This document shows positions 10,610 through 56,142 of a stretch of DNA of 64,000 bases, piece after piece. Below the pieces are notes generated by a model. It worked only from the letters and a program-made list of their open reading frames with translations. It had not been told where the DNA came from and made no database searches. Position 1 is the first letter of the stretch; each line of letters opens with the position of its first letter. Location of the stretch: the NCBI RefSeq assembly GCF_004010195.1, contig NC_057717.1:102454849-102518848 (forward strand), in the 5' to 3' direction. This stretch comes from Chiloscyllium plagiosum. Its lineage: Eukaryota. A program made the position numbers and the translations under genes.

Positions 10610-10951
10610 ACTTTGACTGGGACAACACATCCATCCTAGGACAGGCCAAACAGAGACGTGCATGAGAATTCCTCGAAGCATGGCATTCCAACCAGAACTC
10701 TATCAACAAACACATCGAGTTTGACCCCATCTACCACCCCCTGAGAAAAAGAACAGGGAATGACATTACCGCAGGAAATGATGTCACCACAGGAAATGAC
10801 ATCACCAACCCAAAGCAACCCAGACATATAAACAGAAAGCAGGAATTATCAACAGTGCTTCACCCCGGAGGCCCACTGAAGATGTTACCTAGTAGGGCGA
10901 AGAAACGTCTGGAAATGAACCTCCCAGCTCAGTGAGCAAATCTACATCCAG
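10610..10951 (+). mobile_element. PLE family C 3' end (GIY-YIG C-terminus plus hammerhead)
   Basis: FDWDNTSILGQAKQRRA*EFLEAWHSNQNSINKHIEFDPIY; hammerhead 10873-10912 with weakened stem II; homologous to 40318-40610 and 55997-56142. Confidence 0.85.
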
Positions 10952-11119
10952 TGCCTGCAGATGGCAACTGAGTCTCTCCAGCGACTTCTGTTTGTGTTTC
11001 TGATATGAAGCATCCACAGTGGCTTTGTTTTATCAAAGTTATCCCCTACGACACCGCTGGCCTGCTGTTTTTGCTTAAATCCACTGATTCTCAACACCAC
11101 GCGCTAAGTGGAATGAGAG

Positions 11120-11224
11120 TTTATGCTCTAAACATCGACTGTCCTGCTGCTTGACCTGCTGTGTTTTTCCAGCGCCACACTCTTCGACTCTGATCTCCAG
11201 CATCTGGAATCCTCACCTTCTCCT
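11120..11224 (+). mobile_element. PLE family B terminal fragment
   Basis: tgacctgctgtgtttttccagc...ctccagcatctggaatcctcaccttctcct. Confidence 0.8.
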
Positions 11225-11324
11225 GGAAAGATAAACCAGCGATCACATTTCAATCGAAGGACACGTACTTGGCCTTATAAACCTTAACATGAAGCCCCAG
11301 TCCTTTCACTTCTGTGTATTAATT

Positions 11325-11665
11325 GAGGAGTGTATAAGATTACAAGGGGTATGGACAGGACAGCTGTTCCCATGGGTTGAGGGGTCAATCATGAGGTTTT
11401 AGGGGAAAGGGGCAGGAGTTTCAGAGGGCATTTGAGAGAAAAACAATTATCACTCCGAGGGTGGTGGGAATCTGGGATGTACTGCCTGGGAAGGTAGTGG
11501 AGGCTGGAAAACTTATAACCTGTCAAAAACATTTGAATGAGCCGTTGAAATATTGTACCATTCAAGGGTATGGGCTAAGTGCAGGAAACTGGGATTGGTG
11601 TGCCTTTAGTGTTGGTTAAGTCAGTGCAGACTCAATGGGCTGAAGGGCCTTTTTTGTGAATCTAT
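11325..11665 (+). mobile_element. CR1 3' fragment (old)
   Basis: gagggtggtgggaatctggga...gggctgaagggcct. Confidence 0.7.
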
Positions 11666-12127
11666 TCATTCACAGATCTGTCTAACGATTATGAATAAGA
11701 TCCTCCCTTGCCCCGGAAGCAACGCAGAATATTTGGTGAGATCCCAGCAATGTTTGGTTTGTGCAGCGAGTGAGCTGGAGGTCTATGTGACATTGGAAAC
11801 CACAAAATTACTCAAAGCACTTCAAATCCTGAGTAATGTTCCACATAATGAGAGCTGAAGTGCAAATCAAAGAAAGCTGCTTCAACTTGTAAATCTTAAT
11901 TAGCGACACAAAGGTCTTTAATTGAACTGATCACTGAATCAGATCCTGTGGTGCGTGTATTTTAATTCATTCTTGGGATGTTCGCATCAATTTATTGCCC
12001 TTCTCTACCTGCTCTTAGTTACAACTGAGTGGCTTTCTAGACTATTGAAGAGTCAATCACTTTTGTATTAGTCTGGAGTCCCATCTAGTTTAGCGGTTTT
12101 CACCCCAATAAAGACATTATTAAACCA

Positions 12128-12350
12128 AGTTAAAAGTCACACAACACCAGATTATAGTCCAACAGGTTTATTTAGAGGCACTAGCTTTTGAAGCGCTGCT
12201 CCTTCATCAGGTGATTGATGAAGGACAACTACCTGATGAAGGAGCAGTGCTCCGAAAGCTAGTGCTTCCAAATAAACCTGTTGGACTATAACCTGGTGTG
12301 GTGTGATTTTTAACTTTGTCCATCCCATTCCAACACCGGCATCTCCAAAT
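12128..12350. mobile_element. PLE family A mini fold-back element
   Basis: Arms about 12129-12213 and 12230-12314 plus about 36-nt tail; 13-bp TSD cattattaaacca at 12115-12127 and 12351-12363. Confidence 0.9.
12230..12264 (+). ncRNA. Minimal hammerhead ribozyme motif, family A
   Basis: tac-CTGATGA-a-ggagc-agt-gctcc-GAAA-gc-TA-gtg: 3-bp stem I, 5-bp stem II, palindromic AGCT in place of stem III. Confidence 0.8.
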
Positions 12351-12414
12351 CATTATTAAACCACGTTAAAAATCACACCACACCAGGTTATTGTCCAACA
12401 GGTTTATTTGGAAG

Positions 12415-12449
12415 CACTAGCTTTCGGAGTGCTGCTCCTTCATCAGGTG
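12415..12449 (-). ncRNA. Minimal hammerhead ribozyme motif, family A
   Basis: Minus strand cac-CTGATGA-a-ggag-cagca-ctcc-GAAA-gc-TA-gtg. Confidence 0.78.
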
Positions 12450-13561
12450 GCTGTGGAGTGTAAGATTGTAAGACACAGAATTTACGTGTACGTGGCAGAT
12501 ATTCATGTGACTCAGCCAATGTTGTCTGTCTGATATGCTGCAAGCAAGGGTGTCCTAAGGCATGGTACATTGGTAGGACCGAGCAGAGGCTACTCTGAAT
12601 GGACACCACACAACAATCAAGAGACAGGAGTGTTCCCTCCCAGTCAGAGAACACTTCAGCTGTCCGGGACATTCAACCGCAGACCTTTGGATGACCATCC
12701 TCCAAGGCGGACTTCAGGACAGGCAACAATGCAAAGTGGCCAAGCAGAGGCTGATAGGCAAGTTCAGTACTCATGGGGATGGCCTCAACCGGGACCTTGG
12801 GTTCATGTCACACTACAGGTGACCCCATTGCATTACACACACACACACAGACACAGACACGCATGGACAGACGCACACACACGGACACATACACACCGAC
12901 ACACACATACACACACACGGACACACACACACACTGACACACAGTCATTCCTATCCACACACACTCTTACACACACAAGCACTCCTACAGACACACAAAT
13001 TCCTACAGGCCTATACACTCAAGCAGACCCTCTCTCATACACAAGCTCTCATACGCTCACACATACACTCCCACACTCACATATGCACCCTTTCACAGAC
13101 TTATACCCCTTTACACTCACACTCACACACATACACACACTCTCTCACACACATACATGCACACACACACACACACACATATAAGTTTGTGGGATGAATT
13201 TGTACATTTGTACATTTTATTTTACTCAAAAACTGCATGAATCCATGTGAGATTCTGTAAATCTGTTCTTTAGATTAGAATCAGTCTGAACATTGGGGCA
13301 CAGACAGCCTCTCGCAGGACACCTCACACCTTCAATGCATCATCTGGGCCGACATGGCACCTATTGTTGAAGGTCACTTGAAAATGTAACCTTAATAAAG
13401 TTCTGGGATTTACAAATGAAAGAACTGGAACCAACATGGTCATTCTAAAAGATGAGAAACTTAACAAACAATCCAGGTCTTCGTCAATATATCAGGTCAG
13501 TTATATCACACTGTAAACTTTTGCTATAAATTCTGTGCCTTTTGATCTTATACTCCACGAC

Positions 13562-13596
13562 CATCTGATGAAGGAGCAGCGCTCCGAAAGCTAGTG
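13562..13596 (+). ncRNA. Minimal hammerhead ribozyme motif, family A
   Basis: cat-CTGATGA-a-ggagc-agc-gctcc-GAAA-gc-TA-gtg. Confidence 0.8.
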
Positions 13597-13724
13597 CTTC
13601 CAAATAAACCTGTTGGACTGTAACCTGCTGTTGTGTGATTTTTAACTATATTGCAGAAGGAAATTCTATCCATGCAGTGCACAAACAATTGCCCCATTTC
13701 CTGCCTCCTTTACAAAAATACAAA

Positions 13725-14500
13725 CCAACAGCTGAAGAGTGGCAAATGGAGTTTAATTTGGATAAGTGTGATGTGTTACATTTGGTATACAAACAAAGAC
13801 AGGACTAATACAATTAAACGTAGGGCCTTGGGTAGTATTATAGAACAGGGAGAGGTCCAGGAACATAATTCTTTGAAGTTTGCATCACATGTAGACAGGT
13901 TGGTTAAGAAGGGGTTTAGCCCACTTGCCTTCAGTGCTCAGACCTTTGAGTATAGGGATTGGGATGTTGTGTTGAGGTTGTACAGAGCATTGCTAAGGCT
14001 TCCATTGAAGTACTGTTCCCAGTTCTGGTTGCCCTGTTATAGAAAGGGGTTCAGAAGATATTTACCAGGATATTGCTGGGAATGAGGGGTTTGAGTTATG
14101 AGGAGAGGCTGGATTGGTTGGGACTTTGTTCACGGGATTTTAGGAGGCTGAGAGGTGACCGCATAGGGAATTATAAAATAATGAGTGGCATAGATAAGGT
14201 GAATGGCAGGTATCTTCTCCCTCAGGTAGAGGATGTTAAAACTAGGGGTATATTTTTAGAGAGGAGAAAATTTTTAAAAAGACATGAGAGTCAACTTTTT
14301 TACACAGGTGGTGGTACACGTGTGGAATAGATTTCCTGATGAAGTGGTGGATGTGAGTACAGTTACAATTTTTAAAAGACATTTGGATAAGTCCATGAAC
14401 AGGAAATGGGGGGTTTGGAGGGATACAGGCCAGGTGGGACTAGTTTAGTTTGGGATTATGTTCAGCACGGACTGGTTGGGCCGAAGGGTCTGTTTCTGAC
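13725..14500 (+). mobile_element. CR1 LINE 3' fragment
   Basis: LKYCSQFWLP, YEERLDWLGL and RRLRGD in ORFs 13651 and 14073. Confidence 0.9.
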
Positions 14501-14762
14501 TCCATGCATTTGTAGCTGCCCATTTTTACTGATTGTGGGATCTTGCTGTGTGCAAGCCAGCCACCCCAGTTGCTCGGAAGAGAGTGGTGATTTCTAAGCG
14601 TCAGTCTCTCGAAGAGCCGATATACAACCAGCCTGCGTGAGTTATTTTGCTAATTTACAGAGGGTTGTAACTCTGATGCGATTTTGCCACCATCAGGCCA
14701 GTCAAGAGGCTGCAGCTGCTTCTTATGTTGTACTGGCAAATATGTGCAGCGTGAGGCATTAT

Positions 14763-15072
14763 GGGGCAGCGCGGTGGCACAGTGGTTAGCACTGCTGCCT
14801 CAGAGCACCGGGGTCCCAGGTTCGATTCACAGCCTCGGGTGACTGTCTGTGTGGAGTTTGCACATTCTCCCCGTGTCTGCGTGAGTTTCCTCCCACAGTC
14901 CAAAGATGTGCAGGTCAGAATGAATTGGCCATGCTAAGTTGCCCACAGTGTTAGGTGCATTAGTCAGAGGGGAAAATGGGTCTGGGTGGGTTACTCTTCG
15001 GAGGGTCGGTGTGGACTAGTTGGGCTGAAAGGCTTGTTTCCACACCATAGGGAATCTAATCTAATCTAATCA
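14763..15072 (+). mobile_element. HE1-type SINE
   Basis: A and B boxes (tggcacagtgg, ggttcgattc), (aatct)n tail. Confidence 0.9.
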
Positions 15073-15420
15073 TCCTCCACTGGGTCAGTTGATAACCTTC
15101 ATCCAGTTGATTTCAACAGAGCTGAAAAGTGACTTCTTTTAAATGAGGATCACATTTAAGAGCAAGAAAAGAACATTAGTATCAGCCTGGAGCTGGAGTA
15201 GTATCATAGAGGTGTGACAGCACAGGAAAGGACCTTCAGCCCATTACATCAATGCTGGTCATCATCATTTATCGATCGTAACCCCCCAATAGCCAACAGC
15301 CTTGTGTGCTCTGGTGTTTCAAGTGCTTATATGAACACTTCATAAATATCTTGAGGGTTCCTACCATTCATCATTTCATGTCTGCTCCATCTTTCAATGA
15401 CATCAGCAGCAGCAGGCCAT

Positions 15421-16089: not shown

Positions 16090-16665
16090 CTCCCGTGGGA
16101 CACTAGAGAGCTTGAGATATAAAGAGAGGCTGGACAAGAAGAAGGGCTCATGCCCAAAACGTCGATTCTCCTGTTCCTTTGATGCTGCCTGACCTGCTGC
16201 GCTTTTCCAGCAACACATTTTCAGCTCTGATCTCCAGCATCTGCAGTCCTCACTTTCTCCTGGAAAGGCTGGGGCTTGTTTCACTGAAGTGTAGGAGGTT
16301 CAGGGGTTATAGAGGTTTATAAAATCCTGAGGGGGACAGATGAGTTGAATGGCAAGCGTCTTTTCCCCAGGATGGGGGGGTTTCAAAACGAGAGGGAATA
16401 TTTTTAAGGTGAGCGGGGAAAGATTTAAAAATGGCGAGGGGCAATTGTTTTACACATAGAGTGGTTCGTGTGTGGAATGAACTGCCAGAGGAAATGGTGG
16501 ATGTGCGTCCAATTACAATGTTTAAGAAACATTTGGATAAGGACATGAATTTGGAGGGATATGGGCCAGGAACAGGCAGGTGGGACTAGTTTAGTTTGGG
16601 ATTATGTTCGGCATGGACTGGTTGGACCGAAGGGTCTGTTTCCATGCTCAATTACTCTATGACTT
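16090..16665 (+). mobile_element. CR1 3' fragment carrying a PLE family B terminal insert (about 16138-16261)
   Basis: CR1 reads gagaggctggaca [insert] tggaaaggctggggcttg; the insert is a truncated hammerhead plus family B tail. Confidence 0.85.
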
Positions 16666-17945: not shown

Positions 17946-17999
17946 AAAGGACAATGGAACTCCTTTCAAGTGTAACTTTTAGAAGGATGAAATTTGTCA

Positions 18000-20470
18000 G
18001 GAAGGGAGGGTGGGTATTGGATTGGAAAGAGTTGGGAGTGGTATTGAGGATGATCGTGGAGGAGGTATTGTCGCCTATCCTTACTGATTGTAGTCTATGT
18101 TTCAGGAAGTCATGGATCCAGTTACAGAAATGTGGATAATAATATATCCCTCCCTGATGAACTCAATGCATTCTACATTTAAAAGAGTTGGGAGAGGGAG
18201 ATGGTGCATGATGACACCATCTCGTAAAGCACAGCACTTGACATAGTATACAACACAACAAACAGTCTTGAGAGAGAATACCCTGAGGCTTTGTTCATTG
18301 TAACTAGTGGCTTCAACCAGGCCAACCTTGAGAATGTGCTCCTAAAATACCATTAACACATCCCCTATCCCACCGGAGGCCCGAACATCCAGGACCATTG
18401 CTACACAGTCATCAAAGATGCCTACTGCTCCATTGCTAATCCACCTTTTAGAAAATCAGATCACAACGCTGTGCTCCCCCTCCTGGTTGACACGCAGAAA
18501 TTGAAAAGTGAGGACCCAGCGCCGAAGGTAACGCAGTGTTGGTCTGAGGCAGCGGAAGGTCTTCCGTTGGGACTGCTTAGAATGGGCAGACTGATCGCCA
18601 TTCAAGACCTCAGTGGCCAAGCTAAGTGAATGTGCCAGCACCGTTACAGACATCATTGGTAAGCATGTGCAAGACTGCGTGTTCCCCAACTAGAAACCGT
18701 GGATGAGCCGAAACATCCACTCTCTCCTGAAGTCCAGGACTGAGGCACACAAGTCAAGTAATCCTGACCTATCCAGGAAAATCAAGTATGACCTTTGTAA
18801 GGCCATCAGAGACACCAAGAAGCAATATTAAAGTAAGCTGAGACTCAAACTAACCATAGGGACACCCATTGTTTATGTCAAGGCTTACACAATGTAATGG
18901 GCTACAAAGCAAAGTAGAATAGAATTGTGGACAACAGTATATCCCTCCCTGATGAGCTCAATGTATTCTACACTTGCTTTGAACAGAAGGGCAGTGAAAT
19001 GATCAAACCTATCCCAACAGCCTCAGATGCACTTGTACCCACGATCACTGACGCTGACGTTAGAGCTGCTATCTTGAAAGTGAGCCCTCAGAAAGTGACC
19101 AGCCCAGATGGAGTCCCCAGCCGTACACTCAGATCATGTGTGAGCCAGTTGGCGGGAGTATTCGCACTTAGCTTTAACCTCTCCTTAATACGATCTGAAG
19201 TCCCCACCTGCTTCAAGAAGACAGCCACCATCCCTGTCCCAAAGAAAAACCATGCAGCGTGCCTCAATGGCTACCAGCAGGTGGCTCTGACCACCATCAT
19301 TATGAAGTTCTTCATGGCTCACATCATCTCTGGCCTCCCAGAATGCTATGATGCTTTGCAATTCGCCAATCAACACAACAGGTTCACAGCAGATACCATC
19401 ACCTTGGCCTTCCACTGATTCCAGGAACATCTTGGTAACAACAGTTTCACCTTCAACACCATAATTCCAAACCAACTCATCTCTAAACTCAGAGACCTAG
19501 GTCTCAGCTCCTCCCTCTGTAACTGGATCCATGACTTCCTGAAGGATAGACCATAATCAGTAAGGATAGGTGACAATGTCGCCTGCATGGTAATCCTCAA
19601 CACCAGTGTCCCGCAAGGCTGCGTCATCAGGCCCCTACTAATCTGTGTGGGCAGATTCTGCCCCAACTCCACTTACAAGTTTGCTGACTCTACCACCATT
19701 GTAGCTCAGATCTCAAATAACAACAGAATACAGGAATGGAATTGAGACCTTAGTGGCGTGGTGTAACTACAACAATCTCTCCATTAATGGCAGCAAAACG
19801 AGGGAGCAGAGTGGAGGGCACGCCCCTGCCTGCCTCAGTGGTGCTGAGGTGGAGATGGTCCAGAGCATCACATTCCTGGGAGCAACAATTACCACCAATC
19901 TGTCCGGGTCTACCCACATCGATGCAATGGTCAAGAAAGTACAGCAACACCTTTCCTTCCTTAGGAGGCTAAGGAAATTCAGCATGTCCACAGGGGCTCC
20001 TACTAATTTTTATAGATGCAACATAAAAAGCATTCTATTTGGATGCAGTGTGGTATAGTAACTGCTCCTCCCAGGACGGTAAGAAATTACAGAGAGTTGT
20101 GAACACAGCCTAGTCCATGAAACAAGCCAACTTCCCATCCACTGACTCCACCTCTAGTTCCCACTGCCTCAGGAAAGCAACCAACATCATCAAAGACCCC
20201 TCCCACCCCAGTTATACTCTCTTCCACCCTCTTCTGTCAGGGAGATGATATGAAAGTTTGAAAACACTTGCAAAAAGATTCAGAAACAGCTTCTTCCCCA
20301 CTGTTACCAGACTCTTGAACAGACCTCTCAAACCTTAATTCTGATTTCTCTGTGTCTGCATGTTCTCTGTGGATGTAGCACTCTGTTCCACTACCCTGAT
20401 GCACCCTTGTATAGCATGCAGAACAACGCTCTTCGCTGTATCTCGGTACATGTGACAACAATAACTCAAT
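18000..20470 (+). mobile_element. Rex1/Babar LINE, long decayed copy (APE endonuclease C-terminal half, RT, C-terminal domain)
   Basis: YPEALFIVTSGFNQANL...DHCYTVIKDAY...KSDH; PDELNVFY; PDGVP; VPTCFKKTATIPVPKK; PQGCV; KFAD; KDPSHP; many stops and frameshifts. Confidence 0.9.
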
Positions 20471-20499
20471 CCATCCATCAATCGGCCTTATATATACAA

Positions 20500-22469: not shown

Positions 22470-22940
22470 GGTACTGAAAGGATGTTTCCCCCTCCGTGGG
22501 ACAGACCAGAATGGAGAGGACACATCTTCAAATCAAGATGTCTCCCCATCTCGGAGTGAGGCAAGGAGAACACTTTCCTCTGGCAGGGCCAAGATCTTTA
22601 TTGAAGCTCTCTCCCCTGGGAGGTTGGTGGGGAGTAGGGGTCAATGAGAGAGTTTTGACTGATGACGGAGTCACAGGGATATTAAGGCAAGGCAGGAAAG
22701 TGGATTTGAGGCTAGAATCAGCCATGATAGTACCAAATGGCACAGAGGACTTGAAGGGCTGACTGTGAGTCAATCAGGATTCCTGATGAAGGGCTTATGC
22801 TCGAAACGTTGACTCCCCTGCTCTTCGGATGCTGCCTGACCAGTTGTGTTTTTCCAGCGCCGCACGTTTTAACTCTGACCTCCAGCATCTGCAGTCCTCG
22901 CTTTCCCCCGGTTGAAGGGCTGAATGGCCTACCCTCACGA
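22470..22940 (+). mobile_element. Old CR1 3' end with PLE insert
   Basis: ggatgtttcccc...atcagccatgat...gaagggctgaatggcctac. Confidence 0.7.
22763..22911 (+). mobile_element. PLE family B solo terminus with hammerhead (22780-22813)
   Basis: CTGATGA-a-gggc-ttat-gctc-GAAA-cg-TT; perfect 12-bp TSD ttgaagggctga at 22751-22762 and 22912-22923. Confidence 0.9.
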
Positions 22941-23127: not shown

Positions 23128-23472
23128 TATAGAGTCGTAGAGTTATAGAGATGTACAGCACAGAAACAGACCCTTCGGTCCACCTTGTCCATGCTGACCA
23201 GATATGCCAACCCAATCTAGTTCCACCTGCTGGCCCATATCCCTCCAAACCCTTCCTATTCATATACCCATCCAAATGCCTCTTAAATGTTGCAATTGTA
23301 CCAGCCTCCACCACTTCCTCTGGCAGCTCATTCCATACACGTACCACCCTCTGCGTGAAAAGGTTGCCCCTTAGGTCTCCTTTATATCTTTCTCCTCTCA
23401 CCTTAAACCTATGCCCTCTAGTTCAGGACTCCCCCACCCCAGGGAAAAGACTTTGTCTATTTATCCTATCCT
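23128..23472 (-). mobile_element. CR1 3' end (well preserved)
   Basis: Minus ORF 23075-23401: FTQRVVRVWNELPEEVVEA, FKRHLDGYM. Confidence 0.95.
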
Positions 23473-23691: not shown

Positions 23692-24006
23692 TGGGTGGCA
23701 CGGTGCCACAGTGGTTAGCAATGCTGCCTCACAGCACCAGAGGCTCGGGTTCAATTCCTGCCTCGGGCAAATGTCTGTGTGGTGGTTGCACATTCTCCCT
23801 GTGTCTGCGTGGGTTTCCTCCGGGTGCTCCGGTTTCCTCCCACAGTCCAAAGATGTGCAGGTCAGGTGAATTGGCCATGCTAAATTGCCCGTAGTGTTAG
23901 GTGAAGGGATAAAATGTAGGGGAATGGGTCTGGGTGGATTACTCTTTGGAGGTGGACTTGTTGGGCTAAAGGGCCTGTTTCCACACTGTAAGTAATCTAA
24001 ATCTAA
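23692..24006 (+). mobile_element. HE1-type SINE
   Basis: Head, body and aatcta tail. Confidence 0.9.
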
Positions 24007-27130: not shown

Positions 27131-27503
27131 AAAAGATCCCCCCATTGGATCTAAGCTGGTAACAGATTAATTTGGGAAGGTTTAAACTCAACAGAAACCC
27201 AAGACACAGATCTTTCTGTAAGCTGCCATCCAAAGATGTGACTAGGAGGCTTCATGAATTAAAGTCCTGGTCATTTAATTGTAACTACTTTTCTAATGAG
27301 ATCAGCATACAATATTAAACAATGTATTAAAGACTCATCATCGCTAATGGATATAAGGTGATTAGTAGATGATTTAATGGAAATATAAGGAACAGCCTTT
27401 AACCTAGAAGGTAGTGGGTGTCTGGAATTCTCTGCCCAGTTTGGGAGTTGAGGTACAGAACCCTCAACTCATTGAAAAGGAGCCTGGATCTATTCCCTGG
27501 AGC

Positions 27504-28741
27504 ACTGCATTGGCGCCACCTCGTGCTCTCGTGAGGAGGTTGAGTAATTCATCAACTTCACCAACACATTCCATCCTGACCTTAAATTTACCTGGACCAT
27601 CTCTGACACCTCCCTCCCCTTCCTGGACCTCTCCATCTCCATTAGTGACGACCGACTTGACACTGACATTTTTTACAAACCCACCGACTCCCACAGCTAC
27701 CTGGATTACATGTCTTCCCACCCTATCTCCTGCAAAAATGCCATCCATATTCCCAATTCCTCCGCCTCCGCCGTATCTGCTCCCAGGAGGACCANNNNNN
27801 NNNNNNNNNNNNNNNNNNNNNNNNNNNNNNNNNNNNNNNNNNNNNNNNNNNNNNNNNNNNNNNNNNNNNNNNNNNNNNNNNNNNNNNNNNNNNNNNNNNN
27901 NNNNNNNNNNNNNNNNNNNNNNNNNNNNNNNNNNNNNNNNNNNNNNNNNNNNNNNNNNNNNNNNNNNNNNNNNNNNNNNNNNNNNNNNNNNNNNNNNNNN
28001 NNNNNNNNNNNNNNNNNNNNNNNNNNNNNNNNNNNNNNNNNNNNNNNNNNNNNNNNNNNNNNNNNNNNNNNNNNNNNNNNNNNNNNNNNNNNNNNNNNNN
28101 NNNNNNNNNNNNNNNNNNNNNNNNNNNNNNNNNNNNNNNNNNNNNNNNNNNNNNNNNNNNNNNNNNNNNNNNNNNNNNNNNNNNNNNNNNNNNNNNNNNN
28201 NNNNNNNNNNNNNNNNNNNNNNNNNNNNNNNNNNNNNNNNNNNNNNNNNNNNNNNNNNNNNNNNNNNNNNNNNNNNNNNNNNNNNNNNNNNNNNNNNNNN
28301 NNNNNNNNNNNNNNNNNNNNNNNNNNNNNNNNNNNNNNNNNNNNNNNNNNNNNNNNNNNNNNNNNNNNNNNNNNNNNNNNNNNNNNNNNNNNNNNNNNNN
28401 NNNNNNNNNNNNNNNNNNNNNNNNNNNNNNNNNNNNNNNNNNNNNNNNNNNNNNNNNNNNCTATCTTCTTTTCCACCTATCCACTCCACCCTCCTCCTTG
28501 ACCTATCACCTTCATCCCCTCCCCCACTCACCTATTGTACTCTATGCTACTTTCTCCCCACCTCCACCCTCCCCTAGCTTATCTCTCCACGCTTCAGGCT
28601 CTCTGCCTTTATTCCTGATGAAGGGCTTTTGCCCGAAACGTCGATTTCAAAGCTGCTCGGATGCTGCCTGAACTGCTGTGCTCTTCCAGCACCACTAATC
28701 CAGAATCTGGTTTCCAGCATCTGCAGTCATTGTTTTTACCT
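27504..28741 (+). mobile_element. PLE family B, 5'-truncated in reverse transcriptase, spanning gap 27795-28460
   Basis: CIGATSCSREEVE*FINFTNTFHPDLKFTWTISDTSLPFLDLSI...IFYKPTDSHSYLDY.SSHP is a PLE RT C-terminal/thumb signature; pyrimidine-rich 3' UTR, hammerhead and tail follow the gap. Confidence 0.9.
28612..28645 (+). ncRNA. Minimal hammerhead ribozyme motif, family B
   Basis: tc-CTGATGA-a-gggc-tttt-gccc-GAAA-cg-TC-ga; palindromic ACGT in place of stem III; GUC cleavage triplet. Confidence 0.82.
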
Positions 28742-29074
28742 GCAGGGTCACAGACCAGGGGCTGGGAGGTCGGTTTAGAATGCGCGGCTCCTTTATTCAG
28801 CCAGTGCAAATACTATGGGCTGCGCGGTCCCTCTTTGTCCTGTAAGTTTTCTAAGCTTCTACAAACCCATAAAACTGGAGATCTCAAAATGTACATTCCA
28901 TTGGTTTTAGGGAACTCACAAAAACAAATCATCCAATGTAAATTAGCACGGTACCAAATGTGATTGAGCACAGCGAGATGTGTGAAGGATAATGGTAAAA
29001 GAGAATATTTATTTAACTGTTTCATGAAAAGTGAGGTTTGGGATTTGGCTATTTCAGATACCTGTGCACAAAAT

Positions 29075-29591: not shown

Positions 29592-29807
29592 AGTCAAAAA
29601 GTATTGCGCTGGAAAAGCACAGCCGGTCAGGCAGCATCCGAGAAGCAGGAGAGTCAACGTTTCGGGCATAAGCCCTTTCCTGATGAGGAGCTTATGTCCG
29701 AAACATCGACTCTCCTGCTCCTCGGATGCCGCCTGACCTGCTGCGCTTTTCCAGCGCCACACTTTTTGACTCTGACTCTCCAACATCTGAAGTCCTCACT
29801 TTCTCCT
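29592..29807. mobile_element. PLE family B mini fold-back element
   Basis: Arms 29592-29677 and about 29686-29771, 36-nt tail; TSD-like cctaataaa / cctagtaaa. Confidence 0.9.
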
Positions 29808-30184
29808 AGTAAACCCATCCAGGATTCAGGGTGACCTCCTCACCCAGAGGATAGTGAGAGTGTGGAGCTCACTACCCCAGGAATTGGTAGCGTTGACTCT
29901 CTGAGATACATTTAAGAGGAAGCAACACGAGGGGGAATGAGAACAGGAGGAAATGTTGCTGGGATGAGATTAAGAAAGATAGGAGATATGCTCAAGCATA
30001 GATCAGTTGGACCGAATGGCCTGCTCCTCAGCTTCTCTTTAAACGTTCAGGAGGTCCAGGCTGCCAAGACTTAAATGCCCTTGAACTGAGTGCCTGGTTC
30101 AGAGGGCAATTAAGAGTCAGCCCCATTGCAGTGGGTCTGGAGTCACAAATAGACCAGGTAAGGACTGCAATTTCCTTCCGGAAT

Positions 30185-35502: not shown

Positions 35503-36130
35503 GGGCGCACTAGGCTACTGAAGGAAATGGAGGTAACGCTGTCAAAGGATGTCAAAGCTCAGGCCCATTCCACCTGAAGGACTGGCCACTGATGGTGCAG
35601 CCCTGAAAGTCAGGGGGCATAAGGCTGGAGAGAATGAGAGGATTACGGAGATGGGGAGGGGGATGCGAGGTCAAAACCAAGAGGGGAATCTTCAAACCAA
35701 GCCTTTGCCAGACAGGAGTCGATCAGATGGGACTGCCGATTGGAACTGGGGATGGGTTAGGAACTGATCAGAGGGGCTTTGGATAAGCTAAGCACTTCAC
35801 TGCACCTGCAGGCTTTGGTTCTGTTTGTGACGTTATTGTGTGGTTTGAGTTTGATTTATTCATGTCACATGTACTGAGATACAGTGAAGAGTGTTGTTTG
35901 GTGTGCTCGACAGGCAAATTGTATCATCCCTCAACCAGAGGCTGGGATTCCAACTGCAGTCCAACATTGCTATGGAACAGGTGTAGTGGACAAAGAAGAG
36001 GGTTACCTCAGATTACAACAGGATCTTGATCAGATGGGCCAATGGGCTGAGAAGTGGCAGATGGAGTTTAATTCAGATAAATGCGAGGTGCTGCATTTGG
36101 GAAAGCAAATCTTAGCGTTACTTATACACT

Positions 36131-36682
36131 AGGAGAAAGTGAGGACTGCAGATGCTGGAGATCAGAGCTTAAAAATGTATTGCTGGAAAAGCGCAGCAGG
36201 TCAGGCAGAATCAAAGGAGAAGGAAAATCGACGTTTCGGGCATAAGCCCTTCTTCAGGAATGAGGAGGGTGTGCCAAGCAGGCTAAGATAAAAGGTAGGG
36301 AGGAGGGACTTGGGGGAGGGGCATTGGGAATGCAATAGGTGGAAGGAGCTTAAGGTGAGGGTGATAGGCCAGAGAGGGGGTGGGGGCGGAGAGGTCATGA
36401 AGAAGATTGCAGGTCAAGAAGGCGGTGCTGAGTCTGAGGGCTGGGACTGGGAAAAGGTGGGGGGAGGGGAAATGAGGAAGCTGGAGAAATCCACATTCAT
36501 CCCCTGTGGCTGAAGGGTTCCTAGGCAGAAGATGAGTCGCTCTTCCTCCAGGCGTCGTGTTGCCATGGTCTGGCGATGGAGGAGGCCAAGGAACTGCATG
36601 TCCTTGGTGGAGTGGGAGGGGGAGTTAAAGTGTTCAGCCACGGGGCGGTTGGGTTGGTTGGTCCGGGTGTCCCAGAGGTGTC
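36131..36682 (-). mobile_element. PLE family B 3' end (GIY-YIG C-terminus, UTR, hammerhead, tail)
   Basis: Minus ORF HLWDTRTNQPNRPVAEHFNSPSH...RRLEEERLIFCLGTLQPQGMN. Confidence 0.9.
36227..36260 (-). ncRNA. Minimal hammerhead ribozyme motif, family B
   Basis: Minus strand tc-CTGAAGA-a-gggc-ttat-gccc-GAAA-cg-TC-ga. Confidence 0.82.
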
Positions 36683-36940
36683 CCGGGTTCGATTCCAGCT
36701 TCGGGCAACTGTCTGCATGGAGTTTGCACATTCTCCCCGTGTATGTGTGTGTACCCTCCGGGTGCTCTGGTTTCCTCCCACATTCCAAAGATGTGCAGGT
36801 CGGGTGGATTGATACATATTAGATTGCCCATAGTGTTAGGTGCATTAGTCAGACGGAAATGGGTCTGGGTGGGTTACTCTTCGGTGTGGACTGGTTGGGC
36901 CGAAGGGCCTGTTTCCACACTGTAGGGAATCTAACCTAAA
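36680..36940 (+). mobile_element. HE1-type SINE lacking its 5' end
   Basis: Begins cccgggttcgattcc, abutting the PLE. Confidence 0.85.
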
Positions 36941-39409: not shown

Positions 39410-41280
39410 GACCAAATGACTATAAGATATCGGAGTAGAATTAGGCCATTTGGCCCATCAAGGCTGCTCTCCCATTCGATCATGGCGGATATTTTTCTCA
39501 ACCCCATTCTCTTACCTTCTCCTTGTAACCCTTGATCCCCTTACCAATCAAGAATCTATCTATTTCTGTCTTAAAGAAATTCAATGACTTGGCCCCCACA
39601 GCCCTCTGTGGCAATCAATTCCCCAGATTCCTCACCCTCTGGCTGAAGAAATTCCACCCGATCTCAGTTCGAAAGGGTCGTCCCTTCACCCTGAGGCTGT
39701 GCCCTTGGGTCCTTGTCTCTCCTACTGGTGGAAACATCTTCTCCACGTCCACTCTATCCAGAACCGTCAGTATTCTATAAGTTCAATCAAATCCGACCCC
39801 CCCAACTTCATTCTTCTGAACTCCATCGAGTACAGACCCAACATTCTCAACTGCTCCTCATATGACAAGCTGTTCGTCACTGGGATCATTCTTGCACATC
39901 TCCTCTGGACCCTCTCCAATGCCAGTATATGCTTCCTTAGATACAGGACCAAAATTGCTCACAATATTCCAAATGCAGTCACACTAGCGCATTATACAAC
40001 CTCAGAGTAAATCTCTGGTCTTGTATTCTAACCCTCTTGAAATGAATACCAACATTACATTTGCCTTCCTAACTGCTAACTGAACCTGCATGTTAACCTT
40101 AAGAGAATCCTGAAATGGACTTACAAGTTCTTCTGTGCTTTAGATTTCCGAAGCCCTTCCCCATTCAGAAAACAGTCTATGCCTCTATTCTTCCCATCAA
40201 AGTGCAGAGCCTCACACTTTCCTATATTGTATTCCATCTGCCACTTCTTCATCTGTCATCTGCAAAATTAGCACCAATGCCCTCAGTTCCTCTGTCCAGC
40301 TTGTTAGTGCATTACAAGACACGCACGAGGATTCCTAGAAGCCTGACATTCCAACCGGAATTCTATCAACAAACACATCGAGTCAGACCCCATCTACCAC
40401 CCCCGAGAAAAAGAACAGGAAGTGACTTCACCGCAGGAAATTACATCACCATGGGAAATGACATCACCAACCCAAAGAAACCCAAACATATAAATAGAAA
40501 ACAGGAATTATTAGCAGTACTTCGCCTGAGGCCCACTGAAGATGTAATCTAGTAGGGTGACGAAACGTCTGGAAATGAACCTCCCAGCTCAGTGAGCAAA
40601 CCTACATCCGGAGCATAACGTGAATGGTTGTAGTCCCAACACTGACCCCTGGCAAACTCCACTAGTCACTGGCTGCCATCCTGAAAATAACCCCTTTATC
40701 CCTACTCTCTGCCTTCTGCCAGTCAGCCAATCCTCTATCCATGCCAGTACCTTGCCCCAAACACCATATGCTCTTACCTCCTGTGCGGAACCTTGTCAAA
40801 GGCCTTCTGAAAATCCAAATAGATCACGTCCACTGACTCTCCTAGTCTAACCTGCTCATTACTTCCTCAAACAATTCTAACAGATTTGTCAGGCATGACA
40901 CCCCTTGACAAAGCTATGCTGACTCAGCCTTATTTAAAATGCACTTCCAAGTGCTCCGCAACCTCATCCTTAATAATGGACTTTAAAATCTTACCAACAA
41001 CCAAGGTCAAGCTAACCAACCTATAGTTTCCTGTTTCTCGCCTTCCTCCCTTCTTAAACAGGGATGTTAAATCAACCACTCTCAAGTCCTCTCTCTGACT
41101 CCAGTCCTGAAAGATCACCACCAATGCCTCCACAATCTCAACTATCTGCTCAGGAATCCTGGGGTACAGTCCATCTGGTCCAGGTGACTTTTCCACCTTC
41201 AAACCTTTCAGCTTCCTCGGCATCTTCTCCTTAGCGATGGCCACCTCACTCACCTCTGCTCCTGACTCTATTGAAGAGTC
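39410..41280 (-). mobile_element. CR1 LINE, long decayed copy with internal deletions
   Basis: LKVEKSPGPDGLYPRI, GNYRLVSLTLVVGKIL, LERVQRR; 3' tail near 39410. Confidence 0.9.
40318..40610 (+). mobile_element. PLE family C 3' end inserted in CR1; hammerhead 40533-40572
   Basis: Homologous to 10665-10951; cca-CTGAAGA...GAAA-cg-TC-tgg. Confidence 0.85.
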
Positions 41281-42144: not shown

Positions 42145-42478
42145 AGGCAGCATGGTGGCTCAGTGGCTAGCACTGCTGCCTCACAGCGCCAGGGACCCAG
42201 GTTCAATCCCAGCCTTTGACGACTGTCTGTGTGGAGTTTGCACATTCTCCTCTGTGTCTGCGTATGTTTCCTCCCACAATTCAAAGCTATGTAGGTTAGG
42301 GTGGATTGGCCATGCTAAATTGCCCCATAGTGTTCAGGGGTGTGTAGGTTAGGTGCATTAGTCGGGGAAACTGTAAATTTATCAGGAAGGGGAATGGGTT
42401 TGGGTGGGACACTCTTCAGAGGTTCAGTGTGGGCTTGTTGAGCCAATGGCCCATTTCCAAGCTATAGGATTCCATGAT
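42145..42478 (+). mobile_element. HE1-type SINE
   Basis: A and B boxes, body, tail. Confidence 0.9.
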
Positions 42479-45431: not shown

Positions 45432-45772
45432 TGGGGGCGGCACGGTGCCTCAGTGGTTAGCACTGCTGCCTCATAGTGCCAGGGACCCGGTTTCAATTCC
45501 AGCCTTGGACGACTGTCTGTGTGGAGTCTGCACATTCTCCCTGTGTCTGAGTGAGTTTGCTCCAGTTTCCTCCCACAGTCCAAAGATGTGCAGGTTAGGG
45601 TGGATTGGCCGTGCTAAATGGTCCATAATGTTCAGAGATAGATTAGGTGAATTAGTCAGGGGGTAAATGTAGAGTAAGAGGGGAATGGGTCTGGGTGGGT
45701 TACTCCTCGGAGGGTTAATGAGGACTTGTTGAGCCGAAGGGCCTGTTTCTGTAGGGATTCGAAGATTCTATG
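45432..45772 (+). mobile_element. HE1-type SINE
   Basis: Head, body, tail. Confidence 0.9.
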
Positions 45773-47610: not shown

Positions 47611-47798
47611 AAAAATCACACGACATCAGGTTATAGTCCAACAGGTTTATTTGGAAGCACTATCTTTCGGAGCACTGCTCCTTCATCAGGTGTTTGTGGA
47701 GAATAAGAGTGTAGGACACAGAATTTATAGCAATGGTTTACAGTGTGATGTAACTGGAATTATATATTGAAAAATACCTGAATTGTTTGTTAAGTCTT
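47611..47798 (-). mobile_element. PLE family A 3' end; hammerhead 47658-47692
   Basis: Reverse complement of 13450-13647; core CTGATGA...GAAA-ga-TA (AGCT palindrome mutated). Confidence 0.85.
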
Positions 47799-48819: not shown

Positions 48820-49306
48820 CTTGTTAATAAGCTGGAAAGGGTTTAGAAGAGATTCGCTAGGATGGTTACCGGGACTAGAGGGTTTGAGAGATAAGGAGTG
48901 GCTGGATAGACTGGGATTTCTTCACTGAAGCATAGGAAGCTTATAGAGGTTTATAAAGTCATGAGGGTTATAGATAAAATGAATGGCAGCTGTCTTTTCC
49001 CTAGAGAGGCAGATTTCAAGACTAGGGGACATATTTTTAAGGTGAGAGGAGAAAGATTAAAAAAACACGAGAGGCAACTTTTTTACACAGTGAGTGATTC
49101 GTGTGTGGAATGAGCTTCCAGAGAATGTGACAGATGTGGGGACAGTTGCAATGTTTAAAAGACATTTGGATAAGGACATGAATAGGAAAGGTTTGGAGGG
49201 ATATGGACCAGGAGCAGGCAGGTGGGACTAATTTAATTTGGGATTATGTTTGGCATGGACTGGTTAGACTGAAAAGTCTGTTTCCGTGCTGTATGTCTCT
49301 GTGACT
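48820..49306 (+). mobile_element. CR1 3' fragment
   Basis: Conserved 3' region ending gtctctgtgact. Confidence 0.9.
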
Positions 49307-49496
49307 TTAACAAGCATTAACTGATTTTGCACATTAAGTGAACCGTCCCTCAGCTTCATCAGCCTGATCGCATTTGATTTTGCTTGCATTGAAATTGCTT
49401 CTGCTCGAAGGCAGAAGAGAGAATTTGCATTTCCACAGCGTAGCGACAACCTCAGCACACCCTGCATCTCCTCACTGGGAAAGGCATTGCTGACAA

Positions 49497-49610: not shown

Positions 49611-49619
49611 ATGTAGAGT

Positions 49620-49780: not shown

Positions 49781-49784
49781 TGAT

Positions 49785-51319: not shown

Positions 51320-51620
51320 CATAGAATCCCTACAGTGCAGAAAGAGGCCGTTCAGCCCATTGAGTCGTTGCTAACCCTCTGATGAGCATCCCACCCAAGC
51401 CCAATTCCCCAATCTATCCCCATAACCCCACATTATCCCACTTACCTTGCACATCCCTGGCCAATCCACCCCCAAGCATCTTTGGAGTGTGGGAGGAAAC
51501 CCATGCAGATATAGAGGGAATGTGCAAACTCCACACAGACAGTTGTCTGAGGCTGGAATCAAACTTGGATCCCTGGTGCGGTGAAGCAGCAGTGCTAACC
51601 ACTGAGCCACCGTACTGCTC
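51320..51620 (-). mobile_element. HE1-type SINE
   Basis: Reverse-complement head gcagcagtgctaaccactgagccaccgt. Confidence 0.9.
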
Positions 51621-52589
51621 CAGTTGACAGTAAAAGGATAGGATCTCAGATTTACCTGGCTGGAGTGCTTCACTCAAGAAAAAAAAAATCACTTAGATTC
51701 CATTCGGAAGAATGTCCACCTGAAATAAAGGAATGAGCTCCCACTCCCATCCAGAACTGTTCATAGGGTTCGGAAGATCAGAACAAGAGTTAGCAATTTG
51801 GACTTGCTCTAACTTGCTCTGTCATTTCACATAATCACAGCTGATCTGATTTGATGTGACCCACAACTCAAGGTGCAAGGCAGGAACAGTGGAATGGCCT
51901 TGTCTTTGTGCAGCGAAATTCAACGATGCAATGTTTGCGATTTCAGGTTGACAGGCACTGTCTGATTTATGTAATATTTATAAGCTCCTGTCTCCTACGT
52001 TTGAACACTGGAGTGGTTCAGTCAGGAAATAGGATAAACAGAGCAAAGTAGTGACGCAGAGTGGATTAGCTTAATTGTGCCATCCTGGTTTGGTTGAGGA
52101 GGTGGGAGCAGTTGGAGAACGGGATAAAATCAGAACCTGTTCAGGATGAGCACTCAAACGTGTGTGATCATAGTGAGCTGTGCCCATTTCCTTCCTTAAA
52201 ATATCCTTCAGCAGGATTGAATGTAGTTTTGTAAGCAGCTGAATATGGCTGTTCTTTCACTGAGTCAGAAACAATTGTCAACTGTACAAAGATTTGCACC
52301 CAAATATCAGCGAATACAGTGGGAGCTAAAATTACATCGAGGTGCTGTTAATGAATTCTGGATGACCTTATGAAACCATCTTGGAGAAAGGCTATCCAAT
52401 AAACACACACCAAGGACCAGGACTCCTGATAATTCAGTCGGGGAAATCCCACATTATTGGTTGAAATCTATAACTCAGTCCCCTCTGAACTTTAAAAGTC
52501 CCCCACTGGAATGTAGCCCTCCATTCAATAAAATCTTTCTAAAACCTTCGGTCTGTCATACTCAAAGTCTCTGACATGACAGACATGAA

Positions 52590-52928
52590 ATGGCATGGTG
52601 GCTCAGTGAGTAGCACCGCTGCCTCACAGTACCAGAGACCTGGGTTTGATTCCACTATCGGGTGACCGTGTGGAGTTTGCACATTGCGTGTGTGTGTGTT
52701 CTCCGGGTTTCCTCCCAAGGTCAATAGATGTGCAGGTTGGGTGAATTGGCCATGCTAAATTGGCCATGCTAAATTGCCCAAAGCATCAGTTAGGTGCATT
52801 GGCCATGGGATTGCAGGGTTATACAGTAAGGGGACGGACCTTGGTGGGATACTCTTCGGAGGGTTGGTGTGGACTTATTGGGCTGAATGGCCTGGTTCCA
52901 CATTGTAGGGGTTCTATGGTATTCTATG
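52590..52928 (+). mobile_element. HE1-type SINE with internal 14-bp duplication
   Basis: attggccatgctaa x2 at about 52745-52772. Confidence 0.85.
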
Positions 52929-54364
52929 CATTAGGCTCAAATTCCAAAGACCAGCATGGATGATCCAGAGGTATAACTTCCAATCCAACAGTGGAAAACT
53001 TATATTCAGTTAATCTACTAAATCTAGAATTAAAATGTGGGTTTCAGTCATGGTGAAACAATTGAATTGTTGATTAAAAAGAAGGCAATTGGTTCACAAA
53101 TACTTTGGAAAGGAAATCTGCCATTTTCACAAGGTTTGATCTCCACTCAAATCCAGAACCACAAAAATGTGGCTTCCTCTGAAATGGCCAATCATGACCC
53201 TGTTGGAAATAATATAAAGTAGCTCACTATCAATCGTTGTCAATGGTAATAAGGAATGGGTCCTTATGGTATCTGTTCCCTGTCCTATCCTCTCAACAGC
53301 CCATCCCTGGCCAACACTCCACAGTATTCATCAATACAGTCAACAAAAGTCTTCTTGCAATAAGGCTTTCCTACAGTTGAAGACAGCCTGAGAAACAGCT
53401 GGGAAAAATGCACAGATTAAATGGACAGTCTCATCCACCCAATCTTCAGTCATAAAGTTTGTGTTTCATAATTGATGGGGCACATCAGTCATCCATCAAG
53501 GAATCTCCATTATCTTTATTCTGTTTACATATTTATTCAACACTTAATCTTCAGGGCTTACAGTATTGAGTTGAATGATAAATTGACAACTGTGCACCCT
53601 CGTGTGAACTCCATGCATTCCAACTTCAAATAAGAGATTACTTGTTCCTCTGATTTGTTACTTTTCAAATGCATCTTGGGAGGAGGGCATGGTCAGTTTT
53701 CTTTCTATTAACTCTTCGAAGGGCTTTTGTTCCAATTTGAGCTGCCAATTATTTTCATTTTCACAGTAGTGCACATAAAAAAAGGAACATGATTAACTGT
53801 GGCATTTAAATGGTGCATCTCCTGTCAAAGTTTCTCTAAGGCGTTATTAATAGTGACAGCAGCATCCATGTTGCATTAACAAACCCAGAAGCAGCCACAC
53901 TATCTATGTCAGCTTGACTTTTAATATGGGGCTGGAATGAAGGATGAGGACTCCTTGTGGTTTAGATGTTTTTAAAAACAAATTCATGGGGCTGTGAGTA
54001 TTACAATCTCAGTCCATATTTATTGCACATCCTTTATTATCACTGACAAAGGCTGTTAGTGAGCCACTTTACATTATTTCCAATGGTGTCTTGCTTGGTC
54101 ATTTCAGAGAAGACCACTTTTTGGTGGCTCTGGAGTCATGTATGGATCAGATCAGGTGAAAATGGCAGATTTCCTTCCCTAAGTATTCGTGAACCAGTTG
54201 CCTTCTTTTTGACCAACAATGCAATCATTTCACCATTACTGAAACCCGCATTTTAATTCCAGCTTTATTAGATTAAATGAATACAAATTTTGCACAGTTA
54301 TCATGTTGGATTGGAAGTTACCTGTTTGGATCATTGGTCCAGATCTTTGGAGTATGAAATTAAG

Positions 54365-54710
54365 GCACACACATGTGCGCATGCACACAAACACACATGT
54401 ATACACACACATACACAAACACATACACACATGCACAAGTACTCTCTCTCTCTTTCTCTTGCACAGTCTCTCAGGCTCACTCCCACACGCATTCATAGGT
54501 TTCACACACACACTTATACACTGACACAGTCACACACAGTCTCCCATTGTCTCATACACAGACATTGACAATCCCATACAGTCACAGAGACACACACTCA
54601 CACACACGTGCTCGCACATACACAGGTGCATGCATACATGTGAATATACACACACAGACACACACACACACACATGCACACACCTCACACCCCTGCCCCA
54701 CCAATCCACC
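54365..54710. repeat. CA-rich low-complexity tract
   Basis: Degenerate (CA)n/(CT)n. Confidence 0.9.
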
Positions 54711-55996
54711 CACCAGTAAGTTACACAGTTTAAGGACAAAACTAGACAAACTTTTTTAGTGTTCAATAAGTGTTGAAGATATGCAGGTCGCGTACATTTG
54801 GAAATTGGATGATTTTCAGCCTGAAATTGAGAGACATTTGAGATTTGCTTCAATGGTGTTTCAATAGCTGAACGACAAATTGGGGTTCCAATTCACACGG
54901 ATGGAAAGAGATTGGCAGAAGGTGGCCCATTCGCTCTTCCTGGTCATTCAGCATCTCTACTGAGGAAACATATTTTAAAACGCAAAACATGGGTAGCTGG
55001 CTTGTCCCTCTCTAATTGACCAGTTACCCAAATATGGTCACAGCTAATGGATGTGTGGTTGCAACTTGATCTGATTATGGCTTGAGTGAATTCCTTTCTC
55101 AGCTAGAATTTGTTGTCGGAGGTGCGTATGTCTAACGTGTAGTCCCCAACCGAGAGAGTGCGCCATATTCCTCCTGAACAGAATGCCCCTCCGTCATAAA
55201 GACTGCAGTGATACAAGAAATTGGCTTCTCCCCATCACCTTCTCAGGGCAATTAGGGATGGGTAATAAATGGTGACTTAACCCTCGCCATCCACATCCCA
55301 GATTGCAGACTGTGAATAATAACTAAAAGAGAACCCCTGTATGTCCACCACGGGGAGGGGGTCAAATTGCTCATTTTCATCTGACCTGCAACATCTTAAA
55401 CAGGAAACAGTTCTTCTTAACACAGGGGTGGTTGGGGAGGTTAAAGTTAATTCCATTTGTACAAAACTGTTCATTAATGAGTTAGAAATTGGACTGAAAT
55501 AATAATGTCTGAGTTGTTATGTATATGCATATTTGCGTATGTTATATATATATATATATATAATATGCCCGTTTTCTCAAGGGGCTCAGCCCAACTCTCT
55601 CCACTAAGTTGTTTCATGGTTCCAGATGAAATTAGTAATGGCTAAATGGCCATACTTAGTCAACTGAATATTAAAGGGAAAGTGTGCCTTAATTATATGC
55701 CAGCCCACCAAGTTCCACCAAGATAAATGCACCAAGAATTACTAAAGTAATCAAACTGTGTTGCCCCACCAATGTAAGAAGTGGGACATGCTTTGACTAC
55801 ACCCATCTATAACCCTCCTCCTCCTCTGGCAAGCGATGTGTAACACTGGGTTGACCACATTTAGAAAGAATAAAGACCACATCAAGGCATCGATCACAGG
55901 GAGACAACTTCCTCACTGACTTGCTGCTGATTTTAGCATCTTCCAGTTTCAGCAATGCTAAAATTACTGAGGTGCCTGAGGAAGAAGAGGCGTTCT

Positions 55997-56142
55997 GCAT
56001 GTAGGTTTGCTCGCTGAGCTGGAAGGGTCATTTCCAGACGTTTCGTCACCCTACTAGGTAACATCTTCAGTGAGACTCCGGATGAAGCACTGGTGGTGTA
56101 GCCTGCTTTCTATTTATGTGTTTGGGTTTCCGTGGGTTGGTG
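55997..56142 (-). mobile_element. PLE family C terminus inserted in Rex1/Babar
   Basis: 9-bp TSD agaggcgtt at 55986-55994 and 56143-56151. Confidence 0.9.
56034..56073 (-). ncRNA. Minimal hammerhead ribozyme motif, family C
   Basis: Minus strand tca-CTGAAGA-t-gttacc-tagtag-ggtgac-GAAA-cg-TC-tgg: 6-bp stem II, 3-bp stem I. Confidence 0.82.

Follow-up and report, generated by a model that had tools for sequence, protein, structure and literature searches.

The 64,000-nt window analysed here (Chiloscyllium plagiosum, NCBI RefSeq assembly GCF_004010195.1, contig NC_057717.1, positions 102,454,849 to 102,518,848) contains three families of interspersed repeats, A, B, and C, each carrying a small hammerhead-shaped RNA motif. 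These are almost certainly minimal type I hammerhead ribozyme motifs (min-HHRs) of Penelope-like elements (PLEs), and the evidence supports the view that the three repeats are 3'-terminal (pseudo-long terminal repeat, pseudo-LTR) pieces of at least three divergent endonuclease-bearing PLE lineages. The association between PLEs and min-HHRs is of a kind already known and its understanding is unchanged by this find. What goes beyond the textbook picture is only the very high copy number and a hot spot of insertion 5' ends at the edge of the motif. The find adds a genome of cartilaginous-fish type with an exceptionally large min-HHR load, to which at least three PLE lineages contribute. A literature search found no report on hammerhead motifs of shark PLEs.

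Motif architecture and the three repeat families

A scan of the window with a box pattern (CTGANGA-N8..26-GAAA) gave 17 matches, compared to 4.99 ± 2.33 (maximum 10) in 100 shuffles. Twelve of the 17 belong to the three families, namely 12233+, 12422-, 13565+, and 47665- (family A), 7392+, 22783+, 28615+, 29680+, and 36234- (family B), and 10876+, 40536+, and 56041- (family C), and the remaining five look like chance matches. BLAST with the repeat tails recovered 27 family copies or pieces in the window (11 of family A, 13 of family B, and three of family C); both catalytic boxes are kept in 12 of these 27, the core being broken in most pieces. The full min-HHR descriptor starts with a stem I of 2 bp or more and the CUGANGA box, allows at most one extra base before a stem II of 4 bp or more, and continues with GAAA, two self-complementary nucleotides, U, H, and the second strand of stem I. 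It was satisfied at seven sites, 12233+, 12446-, 13565+, 22783+, 28615+, 36257-, and 56070- (7/27 pieces), and gave no match in each of 200 dinucleotide shuffles.

A preliminary description of this DNA, made from the sequence alone, had proposed three unrelated repeat families, each ending in its own hammerhead, with about 20 motifs in 64 kb. This figure was fair in view of the 27 pieces found by BLAST with the tails, some of which fall beyond the range covered at that time (2555-7520 and 57572-57703). All the cores regarded there as intact satisfy the full descriptor, with 22783+ as an additional one, and the sites at 10873 and 40533, taken as weaker, have two stem II changes each. The three hammerhead-bearing families were borne out as well, but the motif is not terminal, being located ca. 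75–130 nt upstream of the repeat end. The tails of A, B, and C are indeed unrelated, with shared matches of no more than 6–8 nt, the level expected by chance, and the parsed anatomy agrees with the proposed stems, which differ between families yet pair in each, and with a stem III reduced to a 4-nt palindrome, AGCU in A and ACGU in B and C.

Stem II measures 5 bp in family A, 4 bp in B, and 6–7 bp in C, and the unpaired extra base between A9 and position 10.1 is A in families A and B and U in C. Helix I is open (type I topology) and comprises 2 bp in B and 3 bp in A and C. The G10.1-C11.1 pair is present in all three families, and the GAAA box is followed by U16.1 and H17 in the window motifs. 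In decayed copies the CpG of helix III reads UG or CA. It is this combination of features (boxes, extra base, G10.1-C11.1, and palindromic helix III), constant across A, B, and C while the stems change and still pair, which supports the predicted fold by comparison between families. The MAFFT alignment of the three families is not a structural one. A relative of family B, here called B' (locus L049), has a tail identical to B at 35 of 45 positions and an unchanged core. Its 4-bp stem II differs from that of B by two double changes (G-C to A-U and C-G to U-A), helix I has 4 bp, the 10.1-11.1 pair is A-U, and helix III (AUAU) has UA instead of CG, so that the palindrome is kept. Only three exact copies of B' are found genome-wide. 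Among the first 100 genome places listed there are also a second C-like family, with stem II GUCACC...GGGGAC, and several subfamilies of B with differences mostly in loop II and at N7, and the locus L005 (743-768, minus strand) holds another motif family with stem II GGGUC/GACCU.

Most of these features are common to the min-HHRs described by Cervera and de la Pena (2014; PMC4209133), i.e., CUGANGA and GAAA boxes, the unpaired nucleotide between A9 and 10.1, G10.1-C11.1, a palindromic helix III (15.2-16.2), a short open helix I, and several consensus families per genome. The published motifs are also found on both strands, sometimes close to each other in opposite orientation, and mostly single in truncated elements. 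There are two differences in the stems, helix I having 2–3 bp here versus 4–5 bp in most published families, and helix II of family B only 4 bp, whereas the published "larger than usual" helices have 7–8 bp. No cartilaginous fish is named in the available text of that work.

All three families are linked to PLE coding remnants, as the preliminary description had noted for reverse transcriptase (RT) and GIY-YIG sequences. In family B, 27524-27786(+) aligns with residues 433-520 of a 792-aa RVT_1 plus GIY-YIG protein, P0002 (tblastn, E 4e-15), and 36179-36755(-) matches the GIY-YIG open reading frame (ORF) of locus L070 (E 7e-32). In family C, 10609-10950(+) matches the GIY-YIG ORF of locus L050 (E 4e-42; Pfam GIY-YIG 1.8e-6). 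The remnant of family A at 12464-12819(+) was recognized by BLASTP to a family B GIY-YIG ORF (E 1e-5) and is colinear with the motif at 13565, an order found again in the loci L006, L001, and L041. Its two halves, searched separately, gave no Pfam match. Among 101 window ORFs of at least 90 aa, Pfam detected no RVT and no GIY-YIG domain, ALKBH8_N being the sole match.

At the scale of the genome, Pfam PF01541 (GIY-YIG) gave 14,403 first-look candidates, and 47 of the 150 that were scored had E ≤ 0.01, each of them also exceeding the cut-off. The genomic GIY-YIG ORFs form one large family with the usual GIY-YIG landmarks, with Pfam matches on the ORFs of L061, L050, L051, and L047, and seven of 30 loci contain a motif of B or C type in the same orientation, 245–590 nt downstream from the GIY-YIG match. 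The protein P0002 has RVT_1 at residues 299-432 and GIY-YIG at 692-747, and the 403-aa ORF of L061 aligns with its residues 503-791. Searches (tblastn) with P0002 were colinear over RT and endonuclease, covering residues 177-772 in L069, 237-791 in L044, 251-772 in L065, and stretches in other loci too, while Pfam RVT_1 had no match in 72 ORFs upstream of GIY-YIG in genomic loci. Within the limited genomic flanks, an RT region was seen for family B and none for A and C. The GIY-YIG proteins of the three families are only 31–36% identical, and this degree of divergence, together with the unrelated tails, indicates three divergent lineages. Family B ORFs contain a Cx4CxxC linker, a sequence feature that hints at the Neptune clade.

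Abundance and constraint across the genome

We searched the 3.56-Gb assembly to which the window belongs with the generic pattern CTGANGANG-N7..19-CGAAANNTH, taking the reversed pattern as control. A total of 229,314 matches were obtained (114,803 and 114,511 on the two strands) against 1,076 for the control, equivalent to one box-intact motif per 15.5 kb counting both strands. The window itself has 11 sites that fit the generic pattern (sequences read by eye), ca. 2.7 times the genome mean. Exact cores were found 3,374 times for family A, 48,069 for B, and 185 for C, with no match for any of the reversed-pattern controls. The total of 229,314 is well above the ca. 4,000 motifs of the coelacanth or the ca. 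9,000 of Xenopus (PMC4209133), although the pattern used here is a different and looser one. The high-density seeding of both strands with potentially self-cleaving sites put forward in the preliminary description is thus confirmed as far as the motifs are concerned, with equal numbers on the two strands, while its self-cleavage part is a prediction only. Many of the motifs must lie in transcribed DNA and are therefore a possible source of rare RNA cleavage, and the head-to-head pairs described below are a possible source of long hairpins. In addition, 31-mers of the family B stretch 28461-28760 are present in sequencing runs under four organism labels, which hints that family B is shared among relatives.

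The large number of family B cores allowed counting the states of the 10.1-11.1 pair genome-wide, with 48,069 G-C, 724 A.C, 4,922 G.U, and 158 A-U. The compensated A-U class exceeds its expectation (158 observed versus 74 expected, 2.1x), but an unpaired control double (A at 10.1 plus C-to-U at 15.2) does so to a similar extent (170 versus 92, 1.9x). Since the paired double is no more enriched than the unpaired control, family B copies show no selection for pairing, and the excess reflects age heterogeneity among the copies. Conservation of core and pairing is seen between families, where the boxes are constant and the stems differ yet pair, and not as covariation within family B. Family B copies look neutral, as dead copies should, and this has no bearing on selection in the source elements.

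Insertion ends and the predicted action of the motif

The boundaries of the repeats were mapped by aligning the window copies with 8–12 genomic copies of each family. The copies stop abruptly on the 3' side and begin at different points on the 5' side, the pattern expected of retroposed copies with 5' truncation. All three families have two 3'-end classes separated by ca. 35–50 nt, located relative to the motif at +82–85 and +120–125 in family A, ca. +80 and +115–133 in B, and ca. +75 and +107 in C. Head-to-head pairs are common among the copies. The insertion signatures of PLEs are thus present. As in the insertions described in the available text of Craig et al. (2021; PMC8557442), 5' truncation is frequent, inverted copies that are themselves 5'-truncated stand next to others, a tail (30–40 bp in that work) is optional, and a hammerhead is located near the 3' end. 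On the other hand, the pseudo-LTRs that flank the ORF there (direct partial tandems) were not observed in the window, where sense copies are at least 1 kb apart and do not form unit repeats.

The 5' ends are not scattered evenly. Among 74 family B copies selected by their tails, 24 begin within -6 to +3 of the first C of CUGANGA, and in a second sample of family B 37 of 72 begin within -5 to +3 of the first base of the motif. The ends at this edge cluster at -4 relative to CUGANGA (for example the B copies at 22779, 7388, 29677, and 31940), and at least eight head-to-head pairs have their axis at the same edge. The same start is found in family A (5 of 12 copies) and family C (2 of 15). This hot spot rests on BLAST and alignment end points that are accurate to a few bases only, and 12 of the sampled loci had been selected for an intact motif. 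Clustering of this kind is not mentioned in the available part of Craig et al. (2021). The 5'-end distribution offers a cheap genomic handle on what the motif does.

The origin of the copies can be sketched from published PLE biology. The window copies would be dead products of target-primed reverse transcription, in which cDNA synthesis would start at one of two sites ca. 75–130 nt downstream of the motif, giving rise to the two sharp 3'-end classes, and would then run a variable distance toward the 5' end, a second inverted copy often being laid down head-to-head. After insertion, the copies would decay neutrally and fastest at the two CpGs inside the motif, and these two CpGs are the positions that decay fastest in family B copies. 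The motif itself would have been shaped in active source elements rather than in the copies seen here. Most likely it would act there by a weak self-cleavage dependent on Mg2+, 3' of GUC in families B and C and of CUA in family A, and only on tandem or longer-than-unit transcripts in which two sense copies form an intermolecular helix III through their 4-nt palindromes. Evidently, the 3'-proximal copy of the motif stayed uncut in those RNAs that were reverse-transcribed. Taken as a whole, this reading of PLE min-HHRs, dead insertions, and dimer cleavage in source elements is the one we favour, with a confidence that is real but not high, and a catalytic role of the predicted ribozyme in the life cycle of the element, considered by itself, is evenly balanced or at best slightly favoured.

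A number of results weigh against this reading, and no sign of cleavage was found. The predicted cut coincides with the 5' end of only one of the 74 tail-selected family B copies. In one poly-A single-cell RNA run, of which about 2% was covered, 1,325 reads fall on 28461-28760 in about equal orientations, with no pile-up of starts or ends anywhere in that stretch, and the read depth steps up at the 5' edge of the motif in the same way as the genomic copy number. In minimum-energy folds stem II is retained and the hammerhead is not, stem I having just 2–3 bp, folding z-scores are between -0.65 and -1.6, and cofolding gave no dimer. Rfam hammerhead models had no match in the window, either at gathering thresholds or at E ≤ 10, which does not bear on membership among the min-HHRs because the published ones were found by RNAmotif descriptors. 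To these have to be added the lack of selection for pairing in family B, and the lower conservation of the motif in 75 tail-selected B copies compared to the tail block at +45 to +76, a block that was within the selecting query. From the literature, in vitro activity is low even for dimers of PLE min-HHRs (PMC4209133), and for the Poseidon element PAc of Anolis carolinensis the available text of Frangieh et al. (2024; PMC11167929) reports that catalytic mutants have no effect on in vitro insertion and that no RNA-seq reads end at the cut site.

PAc can be compared in other respects too, as far as it is described in that text. Its hammerhead lies upstream of two internal reverse-transcription start sites, the spacing of which is the PLE "tail", and here there are two 3'-end classes downstream of the motif; in both cases there is no RNA-read sign of cleavage. 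They differ in that the PAc ORF starts inside the motif, whereas in the families described here the motif comes after the stop codon of GIY-YIG. Reading from the AUG of CUGAUGA gives a frame of just 17 codons in family B (from 28618) and 8 codons in family A (13568), and therefore the ORF does not start in the motif, unlike PAc. One B subfamily has CUGAAGA, hence no AUG in the motif.

The alternative that survives best, clearly less likely than the favoured reading but a serious possibility, is that the hammerhead-shaped motif has been kept for a reason other than self-cleavage, e.g., as a structured RNA located close to or at the 5' end of the template or terminal repeat, as a landmark for the protein of the element or for template switching, or as a passenger on PLEs. 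The distribution of the 5' ends points in this direction, with 24 starts at the edge for a single one at the predicted cut, a similar result in the second B sample, axes of head-to-head pairs at the same place, and the same edge in families A and C, and so does the unchanged in vitro insertion of the Anolis mutants. Craig et al. (2021), in the text available, likewise raise that hammerheads "simply parasitize PLEs". However, the boxes, relevant only to the chemistry of cleavage, are kept across unrelated families while the stems vary, efficient monomeric hammerheads exist in PLEs of fungi, plants, and protists (PMC4209133), and both the few-base accuracy of the end points and the loci chosen for an intact motif reduce the weight of the hot spot.

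More tentatively still, the roughly 229,000 PLE insertions may be regarded as a natural archive of reverse-transcription products in which the hammerhead is an end marker and not a cutter. Its basis is that between a third and a half of family B copies start near the 5' edge of the motif, frequently in head-to-head pairs, and almost none at the predicted cut. The template RNA would then begin just upstream of the motif, where the terminal repeat would have a transcription start or a processing site. Very short "solo" insertions would result when synthesis starts at the upstream one of the two start sites, and template switching at the RNA end would produce the inverted pairs. The 3'-proximal motif would have to escape cutting if the element is to be copied. 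If true, this would assign the hammerhead of PLEs a concrete and testable role as an end marker.

It is improbable that the many short copies represent a separate non-autonomous element, similar to a retrozyme or SINE and moved in trans by PLE proteins, with a unit of ca. 85–135 nt that would run from 4 nt before CUGA to either of the two 3' sites. The discrete ends on both sides do define a unit of fixed length, and a preprint (bioRxiv 10.64898/2026.07.22.740005), in the part available, derives animal non-LTR retrozymes from PLE terminal repeats and samples one Chondrichthyes species. These retrozymes (PMC7229834 and the same preprint, from the accessible text of each) have in common with our motifs type I hammerheads, a weak helix III, and a proposed origin in PLE terminal repeats, but they are tandem arrays that express circular RNAs, and Tandem Repeats Finder (TRF) revealed in the window only microsatellites and short repeats, with no motif-bearing array. 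Besides, the short copies do not differ in sequence from the 3' ends of the long copies that contain coding remnants, 5' ends are found at many other positions as well, and inverted adjacent truncated copies are already described for PLE insertions in the available text of Craig et al. (2021). Lastly, that the motifs are chance look-alikes in ordinary repeats, without hammerhead ancestry, can be practically dismissed in spite of the missing Rfam scores and the unremarkable thermodynamic folding, because it is contradicted by the shuffle and reversed-pattern controls, and three unrelated tails have the same architecture at the same place relative to the GIY-YIG ORF.

The tail block of family B deserves a separate mention. 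Positions +45 to +76 (28660-28691 and equivalents) are 95–100% conserved in 75 copies, more than the motif itself, although the block lay inside the BLAST query with which the copies were selected and is therefore subject to selection bias. It ends in an AC-rich stretch where the shorter 3'-end class lies and may be the region where reverse transcription starts.

Copies in the window and neighbouring repeats

Family A includes a long 5'-truncated copy at 12487-13650(+), with a GIY-YIG remnant (12464/12487-12819, frameshift at 12595) and an intact motif at 13562-13596, separated by an expanded (AC)n-rich tract at ca. 12830-13190. A 361-nt stretch of this copy is a high-copy repeat with 6577 first-look candidates. 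A short copy at 12365-12456(-), with an intact motif at 12415-12446, stands head-to-head with the long copy starting at 12487. Nearby there is a head-to-head pair at 12128-12315, in which the core is broken in the minus arm (12128-12213) and the motif is intact, at 12230-12264, in the plus arm (12225-12315). A copy at 47611-47699(-) keeps both boxes, but its helix III palindrome is broken (AGAU) and it fails the full descriptor. Another pair at 2555-2711, outside the range of the preliminary description, has both cores broken.

For family B, the long copy at 27417-28745(+) comprises, in this order, the RT-side remnant (27524-27786), an N run (27795-28460), the post-endonuclease region (28461-28613), an intact motif (28612-28644), and the tail. 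The copy at 36125-36755(-) extends to -431 relative to the motif and contains the GIY-YIG remnant (36179-36755) upstream of an intact motif at 36228-36257, followed by the tail. The short copy at 22779-22908(+) begins 4 nt before CUGA, and its motif satisfies the descriptor and has one G-U pair and GUU as its cleavage triplet. A further short copy at 57572-57703(+), also beyond the range described previously, has a broken core. Two head-to-head pairs are present, one at 7296-7520 (axis ca. 7386), the plus arm of which keeps the boxes and has a helix III AUGU (CpG decay), and one at 29596-29810 (axis 29677), with a plus arm that keeps the boxes and has changes in stem and helix III. Their fold-backs, at 7343-7434 and 29633-29731, are long near-perfect hairpins that gave sub-threshold Rfam miRNA-precursor matches (MIR6024 36 bits, mir-680 33 bits) and, if transcribed, could feed small-RNA pathways.

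Family C is represented by three copies. The one at 10609-10951(+) retains the C-terminal part of the GIY-YIG ORF remnant and has its motif at 10873-10912 with two stem II changes, the one at 40314-40609(+) has a motif at 40533-40572 with two changes in the 5' strand of stem II, and the one at 55995-56143(-) carries an intact motif at 56034-56073.

There are two N runs in the window, one at 7914-8669, flanked on both sides by (TG)n, and the other at 27795-28460 within family B, where the endonuclease region would be expected. Runs of this type adjoin PLE copies in many genomic loci, and they may be either gaps of the assembly within repeats or withheld sequence. An apparent 1407-aa open frame was rejected as the result of reading an N run as X. 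Microsatellites of (TG)n type at 54372-54683, 7686-7834, and 4965-5029 gave sub-threshold Rfam matches resembling mir-297 and snoRNAs, which were discarded as RNA genes given the nature of the underlying sequence.

Much of the window is filled by at least two other abundant families of interspersed repeats, of ca. 300–550 bp. The first set is found at 957-1616, 16266-16664, 23134-23471, 48940-49309, 59103-59644, and 60205-60627, and the second at 2164-2482, 14767-15069, 23698-24006, 36676-36940, 42146-42451, 45436-45749, and 52592-52898. No tRNA-like heads were found by ARAGORN. Finally, the ALKBH8_N match (E 3e-8) corresponds to an ORF at 19705-20058(+). This domain is often found at the end of fish LINE-type proteins, and the ORF is probably another retroelement remnant.

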